From the IMG/VR virus record IMGVR_UViG_2740892229_000010: a stretch of DNA of 23,413 nt; one strand, 5' to 3'. The notes under the pieces are model-generated. The model made no database searches, had not been told where the DNA came from, and saw nothing but the letters and a program-made list of their open reading frames with translations. Position numbers and translations under genes: made by a program. Position 1 is the first letter of the stretch, and each line of letters begins with the position of its first letter. Below, one piece after another: positions 1 to 11,877 of this stretch. This DNA comes from a virus (taxonomy: Duplodnaviria > Heunggongvirae > Uroviricota > Caudoviricetes).

Positions 1-90
1 GCGCTGACGCTGACGGATGTTACAAAAAATGCAGCGTATGGCGTTGAGATAGAAAGTCTGGTGCTGGAGATAAATGCACCGGCAGCATAA
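1..90 (+). CDS. 3' end of an unidentified upstream gene, truncated by the window start
   Basis: Open frame from position 1 to TAA at 88-90 (…YGVEIESLVLEINAPAA*). Only 29 codons visible, too short for the ORF track; the frame was chosen by eye. Its position upstream of the late leader is compatible with a Q-like antiterminator C-terminus, but I do not recognise the sequence. Confidence 0.2.
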   Translation, partial: ALTLTDVTKNAAYGVEIESLVLEINAPAA

Positions 91-132
91 TAAAAAAAGA
101 GCCAGCGACTGACCTGAAAGAAGACGCTGGCT
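91..132 (-). terminator. Putative intrinsic terminator, minus-strand orientation
   Basis: 8-bp stem agccagcg/cgctggct at 100-132 with a 17-nt loop; a run of seven A at 92-98 on the + strand gives a T-run after the hairpin on the - strand. No T-run follows on the + strand. Confidence 0.3.
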
Positions 133-600
133 AAAAGGCCTTATATGTTTGTAGAGACTTATTTTTCACAGACAGCAATGATGCCTGTCAATATATTATC
201 AATATGCGGATTGTTTCAGTTACAGATGCTTTATTAAGGAAAAAAACAGCCAGCACTGACTTTCGGTGGAGAGGTGCTGGCTCAGAAGGATAGTTGGATT
301 TCACATGATACTTATGCCTGGCGGTATATTTTCTGACAGACAGTGACGGGTGTTGTCAAGATATTGTGTCATTTATAACCTGAATCAGGGGAGGCCGGAA
401 TGTTATCTGGNNNNNNNNNNTCCACTCTGAAGGACGCTGGCTAAAACGGGTAGATGTACTTCACATGATACTTATATTTGGCAGTACATTTTCTGACAGA
501 CAGTGACGGATGTTGTCAAGATATTGTGTCATTTATAACCTGAATCAGGGGTTGGTCGGAATGTTATCTGGCATTTTTAGCAGAGCCTGAATGCCATAAT
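97..600. repeat. Diverged repeat units of about 150 bp, each with a stem-loop and a conserved downstream block
   Basis: Unit A (about 97-240) and unit B (about 241-410) are adjacent with no N run between them and share a hairpin plus a block like 'ttctgacagacagtgacgg.tgttgtcaagatattgtgtcatttataacc'. Unit C (421-600) follows the N run at 411-420 and is near-identical to B, so it is probably the allelic copy rather than a third tandem unit. Confidence 0.5.
238..283 (-). terminator. Putative intrinsic terminator, minus-strand orientation (second repeat unit)
   Basis: 9-bp stem agccagcac/gtgctggct at 249-283, preceded on the + strand by an A-run at 238-245. The stem differs from unit A by compensatory changes that keep pairing. 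Confidence 0.3.
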
Positions 601-4256: not shown

Positions 4257-4279
4257 TTTCTTTCCTCTGNNNNNNNNNN

Positions 4280-7386: not shown

Positions 7387-9368
7387 AACGAACGCCTGTC
7401 CTGATTGATGTGAACGGCGTTCCGCTTCGTGAGAGTCTCAGCTACAACGGGGGCGGTGCAGGATTTGGCGGGCAAATGGCGGAGTGGTTGCCACCGGCGC
7501 AGAGTGCCGATGCAGCCCTGCTGCCTGCGTTGCGTCTGGGGAATGCCCGGGCAGATGATCTGGTGCGCAATAACGGGATAGCGGCCAATGCGGTGGCCCT
7601 GCATAAGGATCATATTGTCGGGCATATGTTTCTGATCAGCTACCGTCCGAACTGGCGCTGGCTGGGGATGCGGGAGACTGCGGCAAAAAGTTTTGTCGAT
7701 GAGGTGGAGGCGGCCTGGTCGGAATACGCCGAAGGGATGTTTGGCGAGATCGACGTGGAAGAGAAACGCACGTTTACGGAATTTATTCGTGAAGGTGTGG
7801 GCGTTCATGCGTTTAACGGCGAAATCTTTGTGCAGCCGGTCTGGGATACGGAGAGCACGCAACTGTTTCGTACGCGTTTTAAAGCCGTGAGTCCGAAACG
7901 GGTGGACACGCCAGGACACGGTATGGGGAACCGTTTTCTGCGGGCCGGGGTGGAGGTCGATCGATATGGCCGTGCCGTTGCGTACCATATCTGTGAGGAT
8001 GATTTTCCGTTCTCTGGTAGTGGACGATGGGAACGGATCCCGCGTGAACTACCCACCGGGCGTCCGGCCATGCTGCATATTTTCGAGCCGGTGGAGGACG
8101 GGCAGACCCGTNNNNNNNNNNTGTGGAGGTCGATCGATATGGTCGTGCCGTTGCGTACCATATCTGTGAGGATGATTTTCCGTTCTCCGGGAGTGGACGA
8201 TGGGAACGGATCCCGCGTGAACTTCCCACCGGGCGTCCGGCCATGCTGCATATTTTCGAGCCGGTGGAGGACGGGCAGACCCGTGGGGCTAATCAGTTTT
8301 ACAGCGTCATGGAACGGCTGAAGATGCTGGATTCCCTGCAGGCAACACAGCTTCAGTCGGCCATTGTGAAAGCCATGTATGCAGCGACGATTGAAAGTGA
8401 ACTTGATACCGAAAAGGCCTTTGAATATATCGCCGGTGCGCCGCAGGGGCAGAAGGATAATCCGCTTATTAATATTCTGGATAAGTTCTCCACCTGGTAT
8501 GACACGAATAGCGTGACGCTGGGTGGTGTCAAAATTCCGCACCTTTTCCCCGGTGATGATCTGAAACTTCAGACCGCGCAGGATTCAGACAATGGATTTT
8601 CGGCGCTTGAACAGGCGCTGCTGCGGTATATCGCCNNNNNNNNNNGCAGACTGCGCAGGATTCAGACAATGGATTTTCGGCGCTTGAACAGGCGCTGCTG
8701 CGGTATATCGCCGCCGGTCTTGGCGTTTCCTACGAACAGTTGTCCCGTGATTACTCGAAGGTCAGTTATTCAAGTGCCCGCGCATCCGCCAATGAGTCGT
8801 GGCGCTATTTTATGGGGCGGCGAAAATTTATTGCGTCCCGGCTGGCCACGCAGATGTTTTCCTGCTGGCTGGAAGAGGCANNNNNNNNNNGGATTACTCG
8901 AAGGTCAGTTATTCAAGTGCCCGCGCCTCCGCCAATGAGTCGTGGCGCTATTTTATGGGACGACGAAAATTTATTGCGTCCCGGCTGGCCACGCAGATGT
9001 TTTCCTGCTGGCTGGAAGAGGCACTTCTTCGGGGGATTATTCGTCCGCCACGGGCACGTTTTGATTTTTATCAGGCGCGATCAGCCTGGTCACGGGCTGA
9101 GTGGATTGGAGCCGGAAGAATGGCCATTGACGGGCTCAAGGAGGTTCAGGAATCAGTGATGCGCATTGAGGCCGGACTGAGCACGTATGAGAAAGAGCTG
9201 GCGCTGATGGGTGAGGATTATCAGGACATTTTCCGCCAGCAGGTCAGGGAATCTGCAGAGCGGGAAAAAGCCGGACTCTCACGTCCGGTGTGGATAGCGC
9301 AGGCGTATCAGCAGAAGATAGCGGAGAGTCGCAGGCCGGAAGAGGAGACAACACCACGTGAGACGTAA
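7383..9368 (+). CDS. B: Portal protein (gpB-like), composite across three N runs
   Basis: Collinear with lambda gpB from MKRTPVLIDVNGVP… through GANQFYSVMERLKMLDSLQATQLQSAIVKAMYAATIESELDT and SARASANESWRYFMGRRKFIASR to the C-terminus. N runs at 8112-8121, 8636-8645 and 8881-8890 are each followed by an allelic repeat of the preceding segment, so the coordinates overstate the gene length. Confidence 0.9.
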
Positions 9369-9541: not shown

Positions 9542-11493
9542 ATCTTTCACACATTATTGCCGCAGCATTCAATGAACCGCTGCTTCTGGAGCCCGCCTAT
9601 GCGCGGGTTTTCTTTTGCGCGCTCGGGCGCGAGATGGGGGCATCAAGTCTTTCGGTACCACAACAGCAGGTACAGTTTGATGCTCCCGGAATGCTGGCTG
9701 AAACGGACGAGTACATGGCCGGAGGTAAACGACCGGCCCGTGTTTACCGGGTGGTGAACGGTATTGCGGTACTGCCGGTGACCGGCACGCTGGTGCACCG
9801 GCTGGGGGGTATGCGGCCATTTTCCGGAATGACAGGCTATGACGGCATTGTCGCCTGTCTTCAGCAGGCAATGGCGGATAGCCAGGTGCGGGGCGTACTG
9901 CTGGACATTGACAGTCCGGGCGGGCAGGCCGCCGGCGCGTTTGACTGCGCTGACANNNNNNNNNNTGATATCACGCTGATTTACTCAGGGGCGCACAAGG
10001 TGGATGGCAATCAGTTTGAAGCGTTGCCGGCAGAGGTTCGCCAGGACATGCAACAGCGCATTGATGCGGCGCGCCGGATGTTTGCTGAAAAAGTAGCGAT
10101 GTATACCGGTCTGTCTGTTGATGCTGTCACGGGAACAGAGGCCGCCGTTTTTGAAGGTCAGTCCGGCATTGAGGCCGGGCTGGCGGATGAATTAATCAAT
10201 GCGTCGGATGCCATCAGTGTGATGGCCACGGCGCTGAACAGTAATGTCAGAGGAGNNNNNNNNNNGATGCGGCCATTTTCCGGAATGACTGGCTATGACG
10301 GCATTGTCGCCTGTCTTCAGCAGGCAATGGCAGATAGCCAGGTGCGGGGCATACTGCTGGACATTGACAGTCCGGGCGGGCAGGCCGCCGGCGCGTTTGA
10401 CTGCGCTGACATGATTTACCGCCTCCGTCAGCAGAAGCCGGTCTGGGCACTGTGCAATGACACGGCCTGTTCTGCAGCCATGCTGCTGGCGTCGGCCTGC
10501 TCCCGACGGCTGGTTACCCAGACATCCCGTATCGGCTCCATTGGCGTGATGATGAGCCATGTCAGCTATGCCGGTCATCTGGCGCAGGCCGGTGTGGATA
10601 TCACGCTGATTTACTCAGGGGCGCACAAGGTGGATGGCAATCAGTTTGAAGCCTTACCGGCAGAGGTTCGCCAGGACATGCAGCAGCGCATTGATGCGGC
10701 GCGCCGGATGTTTGCCGAAAAAGTGGCCATGTTTACCGGTCTGTCTGTTGATGCCGTCACGGGAACAGAGGCCGCCGTTTTTGAAGGTCAGTCCGGCATT
10801 GATGCCGGGCTGGCGGATGAATTAGTCAATGCGTCGGATGCCATCAGTGTGATGGCCACGGCGCTGAACAGTAATGTCAGAGGAGGCACTATGCCGCAAT
10901 TAACTGCAACGGAAGCCGCCGCGCAGGAGAACCAGCGAGTGATGGGGATCCTGACATGCCAGGAAGCGAAAGGACGTGAACAGCTTGCCACGATGCTGGC
11001 AGGACAACAGGGCATGAGCGTTGAACAGGCCCGGGCGATTCTGGCCGCGGCGGCACCGCAGCAGCCGGTGGCATCCACGCAGAGTGAAGCCGATCGCATT
11101 ATGGCGTGTGAAGAAGCGAACGGTCGTGAACAACTGGCGGCAACGCTGGCGGCGATGCCGGAGATGACGGTGGAAAAAGCCCGCCCGATCCTGGCTGCTT
11201 CACCGCAGGCGGATGCCGGACCCTCACTCCGTGATCAGATCATGGCACTGGATGAGGCAAAAGGGGCTGAGGCGCAGGCTGAACAGCTGGCTGCCTGCCC
11301 GGGAATGACTGTGGAGAGCGCCCGGGCTGTGCTGGCTGCGGGATCAGGTAAGGCAGAACCGGTCTCTGCATCCACAACCGCCCTGTTTGAACGCATCATG
11401 GCGAACCATTCACCGGCAGCGGTACAGGGTGGCGTGCCACAGACGTCAGCAGACGGTGATGCGGACGTGAAAATGCTCATGGCTATGCCATGA
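9532..11493 (+). CDS. C: Head maturation protease / scaffold (gpC-like, S49 peptidase), composite across two N runs
   Basis: FNEPLLLEPAYARVFFCAL, GIAVLPVTGTLVHR, SGMTGYDGIVACLQQA, LLDIDSPGGQAAGAFDCAD and KPVWALCNDTACSAAMLLASACSRRLVTQTSRIGSIGVMMSH match lambda gpC. Segment 9966-10255 is allelic to about 10600-10875, and 10266-10400 is allelic to 9820-9955. Confidence 0.9.
   Translation: MRRNLSHIIAAAFNEPLLLEPAYARVFFCALGREMGASSLSVPQQQVQFDAPGMLAETDEYMAGGKRPARVYRVVNGIAVLPVTGTLVHRLGGMRPFSGMTGYDGIVACLQQAMADSQVRGVLLDIDSPGGQAAGAFDCADXXXXDITLIYSGAHKVDGNQFEALPAEVRQDMQQRIDAARRMFAEKVAMYTGLSVDAVTGTEAAVFEGQSGIEAGLADELINASDAISVMATALNSNVRGXXXXMRPFSGMTGYDGIVACLQQAMADSQVRGILLDIDSPGGQAAGAFDCADMIYRLRQQKPVWALCNDTACSAAMLLASACSRRLVTQTSRIGSIGVMMSHVSYAGHLAQAGVDITLIYSGAHKVDGNQFEALPAEVRQDMQQRIDAARRMFAEKVAMFTGLSVDAVTGTEAAVFEGQSGIDAGLADELVNASDAISVMATALNSNVRGGTMPQLTATEAAAQENQRVMGILTCQEAKGREQLATMLAGQQGMSVEQARAILAAAAPQQPVASTQSEADRIMACEEANGREQLAATLAAMPEMTVEKARPILAASPQADAGPSLRDQIMALDEAKGAEAQAEQLAACPGMTVESARAVLAAGSGKAEPVSASTTALFERIMANHSPAAVQGGVPQTSADGDADVKMLMAMP
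10891..11493 (+). CDS. Nu3: Nu3-like scaffolding protein from an in-frame internal start within C
   Basis: AGGAGG 6 nt upstream of ATG 10891, in the C frame, as for lambda Nu3. The product contains three tandem copies of a roughly 40-aa motif (IMGIL.C.EA.GREQLA..LA….M.VE.AR.ILAA). Confidence 0.5.
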   Translation: MPQLTATEAAAQENQRVMGILTCQEAKGREQLATMLAGQQGMSVEQARAILAAAAPQQPVASTQSEADRIMACEEANGREQLAATLAAMPEMTVEKARPILAASPQADAGPSLRDQIMALDEAKGAEAQAEQLAACPGMTVESARAVLAAGSGKAEPVSASTTALFERIMANHSPAAVQGGVPQTSADGDADVKMLMAMP

Positions 11494-11529
11494 AGTCAGT
11501 GCTGACCATCAACAGGAGGTTTTTACAAT

Positions 11530-11877
11530 ATGGTAACGAAAACCATCACTGAACAGCGTGCGGAAGTACGTATTTTTGCCGGTAATGATCCGGCTCATAC
11601 CGCCACAGGCAGCAGCGGGATTTCCTCGGCAACACCGGCACTGACGCCCCTGATGCTGGATGAAGCTACCGGGAAACTGGTGGTCTGGGACGGACAGAAA
11701 GCCGGTAGTGCGGTTGGCATACTGGTACTGCCGCTTGAAGGCACAGAGACGGTACTGACGTATTACAAGTCGGGGACCTTTGCGACGGAGGCAATCCGCT
11801 GGCCTGACAGTGTGGATGAACACAAAAAGGCAAATGCCTTTGCCGGCAGTGCCCTGAGTCACGCGGCGCTGCCGTAA
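11530..11877 (+). CDS. D: Head decoration protein (gpD-like)
   Basis: GNDPAHTATGSSG…TPLMLDEATGKLVVWDG…AVGILVLP…YYKSGTF…KKANAFAGSA matches lambda gpD; AGGAGG upstream. Confidence 0.9.
   Translation: MVTKTITEQRAEVRIFAGNDPAHTATGSSGISSATPALTPLMLDEATGKLVVWDGQKAGSAVGILVLPLEGTETVLTYYKSGTFATEAIRWPDSVDEHKKANAFAGSALSHAALP

Follow-up and report, generated by a model that had tools for sequence, protein, structure and literature searches.

Tandem diverged small-RNA genes, pasA and a probable paralogue, between the esterase and holin genes of a Stx1-type lambdoid prophage

The spacer that separates an esterase gene from the lysis genes was analysed in a viral DNA of 23,413 nucleotides (IMG/VR record IMGVR_UViG_2740892229_000010), called the window below and numbered along its plus strand. 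Positions 91-410 very probably contain two tandem, diverged and paralogous small-RNA genes of a Stx1-type lambdoid prophage, pasA and a second gene that we call unit A, both encoded on the minus strand. The two genes would face the Q-dependent late operon, convergent with it and antisense to it; in this operon the esterase gene nanS-p is followed by the holin S-R-Rz cassette. Unit B would be pasA (from 324 to 240) and unit A (from about 156-168 to 92) would give the RNA listed as EcOnc51/52 in E. coli O157; in the 236-nt read-through form of PasA, unit A would also supply the 3' part. A common layout is proposed for both: an inferred promoter with a perfect -35 box TTGACA and a TG-extended weak -10, a short allele-variable body and a GC-rich terminator with U7. 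A GC-rich terminator hairpin followed by a U tail is the usual Hfq-binding 3' module of enterobacterial sRNAs. The order "A-run, then hairpin" seen on the plus strand would thus be the reverse complement of the minus-strand terminators. The RNAs are expected to regulate core and virulence mRNAs in trans, by Hfq-dependent base pairing; for PasA in EPEC E2348/69 such action is supported by 41 RIL-seq interactions and by Hfq-dependent abundance, the RNA being less stable in delta-hfq (PMC8550237). The feature is real, functional and already known, as PasA/PasC and EcOnc51/52: PasA and PasC were validated in 2021 and their distribution was analysed in 2026, and peaks on unit A were listed in 2014.

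The first 720 positions of the window match Stx1-converting lambdoid phages at 95-97% (H-19B, YYZ-2008 = NC_011356 and many Stx1a phages), and in all matched Stx1-type phages the esterase-holin spacer is the counterpart of the region described here. On the plus strand, positions 1-90 belong to a nanS-p/yjhS-type gene for a SASA sialate O-acetyl esterase, of which they form the 3' end with the stop codon TAA at 88-90. This part matches H-19B and Stx1a phages at 97%, and the gene is annotated as yjhS or as a SASA family esterase in LC567819, NC_011356 and E2348/69. On the other side, the open reading frame at 698-904 of the plus strand encodes a holin S of the phage-21/class II type, the first gene of the lysis cassette, annotated as S or holin in H-19B, LC567819 and E2348/69. 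A terminator-like hairpin with a T-run lies on the plus strand at 617-653 (called at 617-643 by the scan), 45 nt before the holin start codon, and is unchanged across related loci.

Direct reading confirmed what the earlier note had described here, namely two diverged tandem repeats, unit A (about 91-239) and unit B (240-410), which adjoin directly, with no N between them, and each of which opens with an A-run and a hairpin. Hairpin A, beginning 10 nt past the esterase stop codon, pairs AGCCAGCG (100-107) with CGCTGGCT (125-132) and is preceded by A7 at 92-98; hairpin B pairs AGCCAGCAC (248-256) with GTGCTGGCT (274-282) and is preceded by A7 at 240-246. Compared with shuffled sequences the two fold at z -5.7 and -4.0, respectively, and 0 of 200 shuffles was as good. 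Their U7 tails exist on the minus strand only; on the plus strand no U-run or T-run follows hairpin A or B, so they do not stop late transcription on its way to the holin. Beyond the hairpins the two units resemble each other only weakly. When unit A is aligned globally with unit B, or with the PasC locus, the score is nevertheless about 9 sd above shuffled controls, and a multiple alignment places the TTGACA box, the CTGTCTGT-GAAAA block, ATAAGT and the hairpin in register between the units; unit A carries a deletion of 15 nt where the RNA body begins. Judged by these alignments, unit A is a full-length, strongly diverged tandem paralogue that covers promoter, body and terminator.

The identity of unit B follows from published probes. 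The northern probes for EPEC prophage sRNAs are given in Table S6 of Pearl Mizrahi et al. 2021 (PMC8550237), and the one for PasA, GCCAGCACTGACTTTCGGTGGAGAG, equals the window plus strand at 249-273 in 25 of 25 positions. In the same table both PasA and PasC are entered opposite in strand to the flanking genes ('> < >'). A probe being the complement of its RNA, and both entries being antisense, PasA and PasC are made from the minus strand of the window. The 85-nt major form of PasA, mapped from 743499 to 743415 in E2348/69, corresponds to 324 down to 240. Its Rho-independent terminator (240-282, minus strand), identified by folding and covariation, consists of the stem AGCCAGCAC/GUGCUGGCU (282 to 248), of 9 bp and GC-rich, then a G, then U7 (246 to 240). 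The earlier note had offered a pair of small structured RNAs as one reading, which the exact probe matches and the minus-strand origin of the RNAs now support; its further suggestion, that the A-run/hairpin geometry would terminate minus-strand transcription, agrees with the published 3' ends, which map to the U-runs. The published PasA seed, GCCAGCACCU, taken from the text of Fig. S5 (Pearl Mizrahi 2021, PMC8550237), is found at 281 to 272 on the minus strand, where it makes up the 5' arm of the stem of this terminator.

The context points the same way. The pasA gene sits between the SASA sialate esterase gene and the holin-lysozyme genes, antisense to both, and the synteny esterase-pasA-holin has been described by Zhu, Shabalina & Storz 2026 (bioRxiv 10.64898/2026.05.13.724894) with NC_011356, itself among the matches to this window, as the PasA phage. 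The predicted pasA promoter (330-359, minus strand) has the -35 box TTGACA (359 to 354), an 18-nt spacer and a TG-extended weak -10, TGT-CAGAAA (338 to 330). The start predicted from it, 324/323, coincides with the published PasA 5' end (mapped from E2348/69), and the inferred promoter block is invariant between pasA and pasC loci. Perhaps that 5' end derives from cleavage of a longer transcript (Zhu et al. 2026). Our consensus scan for promoters and terminators left the TTGACA promoters uncalled, their -10 being weak, and missed terminator B, whose loop is longer than 8 nt. As to the allele, unit B differs from PasA of E2348/69 in the 5' ~40 nt and shares the rest. PasA and PasA-2 are alleles with a common 3' end that differ in their first 40 nt (Zhu et al. 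2026); as the window departs from PasA in the same 40-nt part, its allele is taken to be probably of the PasA-2 type. The two pasA alleles are about equally frequent among 120 related viral contigs.

Those 120 contigs, anchored on the esterase 3' end, allowed us to align 11 distinct hairpins of four types, a covariation comparison that the earlier note had proposed. The paired G:C versus A:T change it had read between the two stems is real, and the pattern of preserved pairing generalises to the 11 hairpins. Standard pairs are formed in 94.5% of the aligned cells, against 21-55% when the partners are slid, and both sides change in four of the ten stem pairs, among them pair 7 (C-G to U-A) and pair 8 (G-C to A-U). 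Pairing is thus conserved and the stems covary across homologous loci, which supports selection on stem pairing, though the independent events behind the covariation are few: four types of hairpin, with some 2-4 substitution pairs. A reason for this pattern may be found in the position of the seed. Because the PasA seed doubles as the 5' arm of the terminator, a change of seed calls for a matching change in the 3' arm if termination and a stable RNA are to be maintained, and this would account for the compensatory changes between units and alleles. Plausibly, the paired stem changes represent retargeting with the terminator preserved.

Three locus architectures occur among the 120 contigs: unit A together with pasA, a single PasC-type unit, and a single unit which we call the L029 type. 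The latter is pasA-like, has the stem AGCCAGTAC/GTACTGGCT and stands directly after the stop codon, and PasC combines stem arms of the unit A type with a body of the pasA type. The chimeric make-up of PasC and the position of the L029-type unit suggest recombination between repeated terminator modules.

The window itself appears to contain a third copy, which needs a different explanation. Positions 411-420 are a gap of 10 N, one of 18 runs of exactly 10 N in the window, and 10 of these 18 gaps are flanked by diverged copies, the sequence on the left recurring to the right of the gap. The window is consequently a scaffold of contigs that end inside repeats common to sister prophages. In the complete phages H-19B and Stx1_14040, units A and B are followed by a direct junction of window position 410 with 572, and the esterase-holin spacer is about 160 bp shorter in complete genomes than in the window. 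The extra piece, 421-571, carries on its minus strand a fragment of a PasC-type allele, recognized by the PasC probe and by alignment with E2348/69 PP5, and is absent from H-19B and Stx1_14040. The PasC probe CGCTGGCTAAAACGGGTAGATGTAC equals the plus strand at 435-459 in 25 of 25 positions; pasC, running from 484 to 421 by mapping from E2348/69, is cut within the terminator loop by the contig end at 421, which leaves the window without its 3' arm and U-run. Segment 421-571 is therefore a PasC-type allele of a sister prophage joined by scaffolding, and no third tandem repeat. Of the range 91-600 given in the earlier note, 91-410 holds and 411-571 does not, being the N gap and the PasC-type allele.

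Unit A has the same parts as pasA. Its Rho-independent terminator (92-132, minus strand), identified by folding and by RIL-seq fragments, is the stem AGCCAGCG/CGCUGGCU (132 to 100) followed by U7 (98 to 92). Its predicted promoter (162-191, minus strand) has TTGACA at 191 to 186, an 18-nt spacer and a TG-extended weak -10, TGT-GAAAAA (170 to 162), with a start at about 156; register and -35/TG/-10 spacing are those of the pasA promoter block. The small RNA of unit A (92-168, minus strand), with a start predicted at about 156-168, would be some 65-78 nt long and would correspond to two Hfq CRAC peaks of O157 Sakai, EcOnc51 in prophage Sp12 and EcOnc52 in Sp4.

This correspondence depends on coordinates. 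EcOnc51 (Sp12, 2237479-2237555, + strand) and EcOnc52 (Sp4, 1181998-1182075, - strand) were each listed as an Hfq CRAC peak with a predicted terminator (Tree et al. 2014, PMC4104026, Table S2); the peaks are 77-78 nt long. These positions refer to an older Sakai record and were calibrated against NC_002695.2 with sequences and probes of the same supplement. The offset (new minus old) is about 0 to +12 at 1.18 Mb in Sp4 (probes for EcOnc05 and EcOnc08/21), +136 at 1.27 Mb in Sp5 (AsxR sequence) and about +128 to +136 at 2.17 Mb in Sp11 (EcOnc24 probe and its terminator), and the EcOnc04 probe at 2.19 Mb in Sp11 agrees with the other offsets. After calibration both peaks lie on unit A and their 3' edges fall at the U-run, the residual uncertainty being about 10-20 nt, and none of the Sakai Hfq peaks listed by Tree et al. 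falls on unit B. By position, then, unit A and not pasA is the counterpart of EcOnc51 and EcOnc52. An assignment of EcOnc51 to unit B, obtained when the uncalibrated coordinates are laid on NC_002695.2, was rejected, since the position-dependent offsets place it on unit A. Our literature search for EcOnc51/52 found no main-text mention in any paper retrieved.

In EPEC, the same region was seen from another side. The 236-nt minor form of PasA ends at 743264 of E2348/69, equal to window position 89 and just past the U-run of hairpin A. In RIL-seq the unit A region was scored apart, as 'pasA.E2348C_0688.IGR', and was always the second RNA in chimeras (PMC8550237), which is sRNA-like behaviour; the RNA2 fragments at 743267-743294 map onto hairpin A. 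The sole northern probe used for PasA falls within unit B (PMC8550237).

How much of this RNA comes from unit A itself is where the main alternative enters. Unit A may be a decayed duplicate which serves only as a back-up terminator for pasA read-through and keeps antisense transcription out of the esterase gene; all RNA over it would then start at the pasA promoter. We consider this a real possibility, though one that falls short of being probable. The 236-nt form ending at hairpin A was documented with the unit B probe, the published authors merged the unit A region and PasA into one sRNA (PMC8550237), the -10 element of unit A is weak, and a copy of unit A on EHEC plasmids shows visible decay (a C-A stem mismatch). 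Yet the Hfq peaks listed in Sakai are on unit A and not on unit B, and unit A retains a perfect TTGACA box with pasA-like spacing of its promoter elements. Moreover, in Sakai Sp4 an IS629 replaces everything past window position 213, so that unit A with its TTGACA box and inferred promoter is the only unit left, in the absence of pasA. Unit A is identical in Sp4 and Sp12 and the peak scores of EcOnc51 and EcOnc52 are nearly equal; CRAC reads are accordingly not assignable to one copy. Finally, among 35 distinct two-unit loci variation is limited to the length of the A-run and to window positions 285-327, the 5' body of pasA; unit A is invariant there, the overall diversity of these loci being too small for a separate test of selection on unit A. 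Unit A is likely to be transcribed independently; the 236-nt read-through RNA could explain the Hfq binding at hairpin A as well.

A further possibility extends the two-gene reading, and we rate it as rather unlikely. The spacer would be a small recombining array of Pas-family sRNA genes, with unit A as an independently transcribed third member having a seed of its own, GCCAGCGUCU, and the RNAs may act in cis on the late mRNA. Recombination between A-run/terminator modules would create the one-unit alleles, PasC and the L029 type. Both RNAs are fully complementary to the late transcript, and PasA would in addition pair with a motif in the esterase 3' end; acting on the late mRNA of their own and of sister prophages, they might tune esterase or holin expression or the timing of lysis. 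The motif in question, CUGGUGCUGGA at 58-68 of the plus strand, is a PasA target motif by the RIL-seq analysis in Table S7 (rows E2348C_1246 and E2348C_0688; Pearl Mizrahi 2021, PMC8550237), and its core GGUGCUGG (60-67) is an 8-nt complement to the PasA seed. With RNAduplex, whole PasA or unit A RNA paired with the esterase 3' end no better than with shuffled targets, which makes this prediction uninformative; what we retain is the 8-nt complement and the RIL-seq site.

It is quite improbable that the hairpins work mainly in the plus-strand late mRNA, as 3' stabilisers or processing sites which split the esterase and lysis messages, the minus-strand RNAs being incidental. Hairpin A does lie only 10 nt beyond the esterase stop codon, both hairpins fold equally well as plus-strand RNA, and a plus-strand fragment of the spacer (743494-743512) occurs in RIL-seq chimeras with PasB. 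Against these observations stand the conserved U7 tails, exclusive to the minus strand, and the documented Hfq-dependent minus-strand RNAs of the expected sizes.

The earlier note had offered as its first reading a duplicated late-promoter/leader module of the plus strand upstream of the lysis genes, at the place of pR', qut and the 6S-like leader of lambda. Although the position just before holin S resembles the lambda layout and a terminator-like plus-strand hairpin (617-653) follows downstream, this can practically be dismissed: Q, together with the spacer that follows it, is found 4-6 kb farther upstream, ahead of stx1AB and the esterase gene, the published PasA and PasC RNAs are minus-strand, and a blastn search of the units against the Q-stx1 spacer of H-19B, which holds pR', gave no significant similarity (best E = 0.085 over 27 nt). 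In H-19B Q occupies 11300-11734 and the locus lies at about 15.8 kb, some 4 kb downstream, with stx1AB and the esterase gene between; in Stx1_14040 Q is more than 6 kb upstream of the locus. The promoter-like motif on which the idea had leaned, TTGTCA (353-358), 15 nt, TATAAC (374-379), does exist on the plus strand (353-379). As a promoter it fails a standard sigma-70 scan because of its short spacer and the missing final T, and the same TGTCAA box, taken on the minus strand, gives a perfect TTGACA whose distance from the published PasA 5' end is right. The plus-strand promoter scan of units A and B called nothing except a weak CAGACA-17-TATATT.

The two small-RNA genes are widespread in E. 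coli. Among 5,426 complete genomes, unit A is present in 677 (~12%), at 2,303 places with a median of 3 per genome, and unit B in 676, at 2,185 places. Plasmid copies of unit A are decaying relics beside IS elements and are uninformative on function. No annotated feature underlies the match in any best-matching record among the matches listed, and no Rfam family matches these sRNA genes, an annotation gap owing to which sequence-only readers keep rediscovering them. To what was already known the present analysis adds that unit A is, by alignment, a tandem paralogue of pasA, that EcOnc51/52 map, after calibration, to unit A, and that the apparent third copy is a scaffolding artefact. Copies of pasA have been stated not to be tandem duplicates (Zhu et al. 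2026, bioRxiv 10.64898/2026.05.13.724894); the paralogy of unit A qualifies that statement and points to a candidate sRNA. A seed placed within a terminator stem also offers a concrete reason for compensatory stem evolution.

Among known systems, the lambda pR'-qut-6S RNA-tR' region resembles this locus only in its general position before the lysis cassette; it differs in strand, in the adjacency of Q and in having a plus-strand U-run after its hairpins, and the cognate H-19B Q-stx1 spacer is dissimilar. Closer in kind are AgvB and AsxR (RF02702, RF02703), the anti-sRNAs of EHEC lambdoid prophages. Like the RNAs found here, they are short and bind Hfq, come from the "moron" region that follows pR', run convergently with the late operon and join a conserved terminator to a variable 5' part, with several alleles in each genome. 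They lie, however, upstream of the esterase gene and not between esterase and holin, and their seed is in the 5' variable region, unlike that of PasA in the terminator stem. AgvB and AsxR have no sequence match here, and no Rfam family, RF02702 and RF02703 included, matched the whole window at the gathering threshold, and none matched positions 1-720 at E <= 5 except a chance snoRNA. OmrA/OmrB and PrrF1/PrrF2 resemble units A and B as adjacent, co-oriented paralogues with their own terminators, read-through giving longer species. Units A and B are far more diverged than these pairs, sharing only promoter blocks and stem arms, and unit A is a candidate for independent expression. EcOnc51/52 of Sakai have the sequence of window unit A, lie on the minus strand relative to the late genes, were flagged with a Rho-independent terminator and are Hfq CRAC peaks; they have been cited as EHEC homologues of PasA (PMC8550237), but coincide after calibration with unit A and not with the pasA unit. 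PasA and PasC of EPEC E2348/69 share with the window exact probe matches, synteny, antisense orientation, terminator and seed. In the PasA papers unit A figures only as the 3' extension of the minor 236-nt form, whereas here it emerges, by alignment, as a diverged tandem paralogue, and the PP2 locus of E2348/69 has a two-unit layout identical to that of the window.

Exactly 10 N make up each of the 18 N runs in the window (411-420, 941-950, 2783-2792, 4270-4279, 8112-8121 and 13 others). At 10 of these 18 gaps, 65-210 nt of the sequence to the left reappear, in diverged form, on the right. This recurrence shows that the window is a scaffold in which contigs of paralogous prophages have been joined, and the seeming local duplications beside N runs are therefore artefacts. 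Among them are the apparent duplications at the 3´ end of the holin gene (857-940 repeated at 952-1035) and in the Rz region (2629-2782 repeated at 2794-2947).

Comparison of 35 distinct loci carrying both unit A and pasA (the adjacent unit B) revealed that almost all substitutions fall into a 40-nt patch of the pasA 5´ body (window 285-327), the flanks of which are nearly invariant. Two allele classes of this patch occur at roughly equal frequencies. The pattern looks like recombinational allele replacement, not gradual drift. Across all related loci, a strong terminator-like hairpin on the plus strand (GGCCGTCAGTGGGTGACACTGGCGGCT followed by a T-run, 617-653), located 45 nt ahead of the codon at which the holin gene starts, is unchanged. 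It could keep non-antiterminated transcription out of the lysis genes, or else end a plus-strand spacer RNA.

The 3´ end of the esterase gene contains CTGGTGCTGGA (58-68, plus strand), which nearly repeats the 3´ arm in hairpin B, the PasA terminator stem (compared with 272-281). The same sequence was entered as a PasA binding site in a RIL-seq motif analysis (Pearl Mizrahi 2021, PMC8550237). The sRNA may therefore pair with the late transcript of the prophage that encodes it and with those of sister prophages. In duplex prediction with the whole RNA against the esterase 3´ end, shuffled targets scored no worse.

Unit A is also found in other surroundings. In prophage Sp4 of E. coli O157 Sakai (NC_002695.2, 1181500-1182700; positions 509-700 of this segment), IS629 has inserted 123 bp past the esterase stop codon; pasA and the holin-proximal part of the spacer have been lost to it, and unit A with its TTGACA box remains. 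Plasmid pO145-12581 (NZ_CP007138.1, 2440-2700) carries a decayed esterase 3´ end together with a relic of unit A, bordered by IS elements, in which unit A retains 91% identity and has a C-A mismatch in the stem. Relics of the same type are present on about 58 other EHEC plasmids (large virulence plasmids) and explain the majority of the 100 places at which unit A occurs on plasmids, as against 5 for unit B.

Coordinates of Tree et al. 2014 (PMC4104026) are offset from the current RefSeq Sakai record (versions at issue NC_002695.1 and NC_002695.2) by an amount that varies with position. The difference goes from about 0-12 nt at 1.18 Mb to +136 at 1.27 Mb, and it is about +128-136 at 2.17 Mb. 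Left uncorrected, the published coordinates put the EcOnc sRNAs (Hfq CRAC peaks) in wrong places. Because the window begins within the esterase gene, the upstream part of the sRNA cluster lies outside it. Related prophages carry further convergent sRNAs there, upstream of the esterase gene, namely EcOnc05, EcOnc08/21 and PasD2 (Sakai 1179500-1180500; EPEC strain E2348/69 741157-741328).
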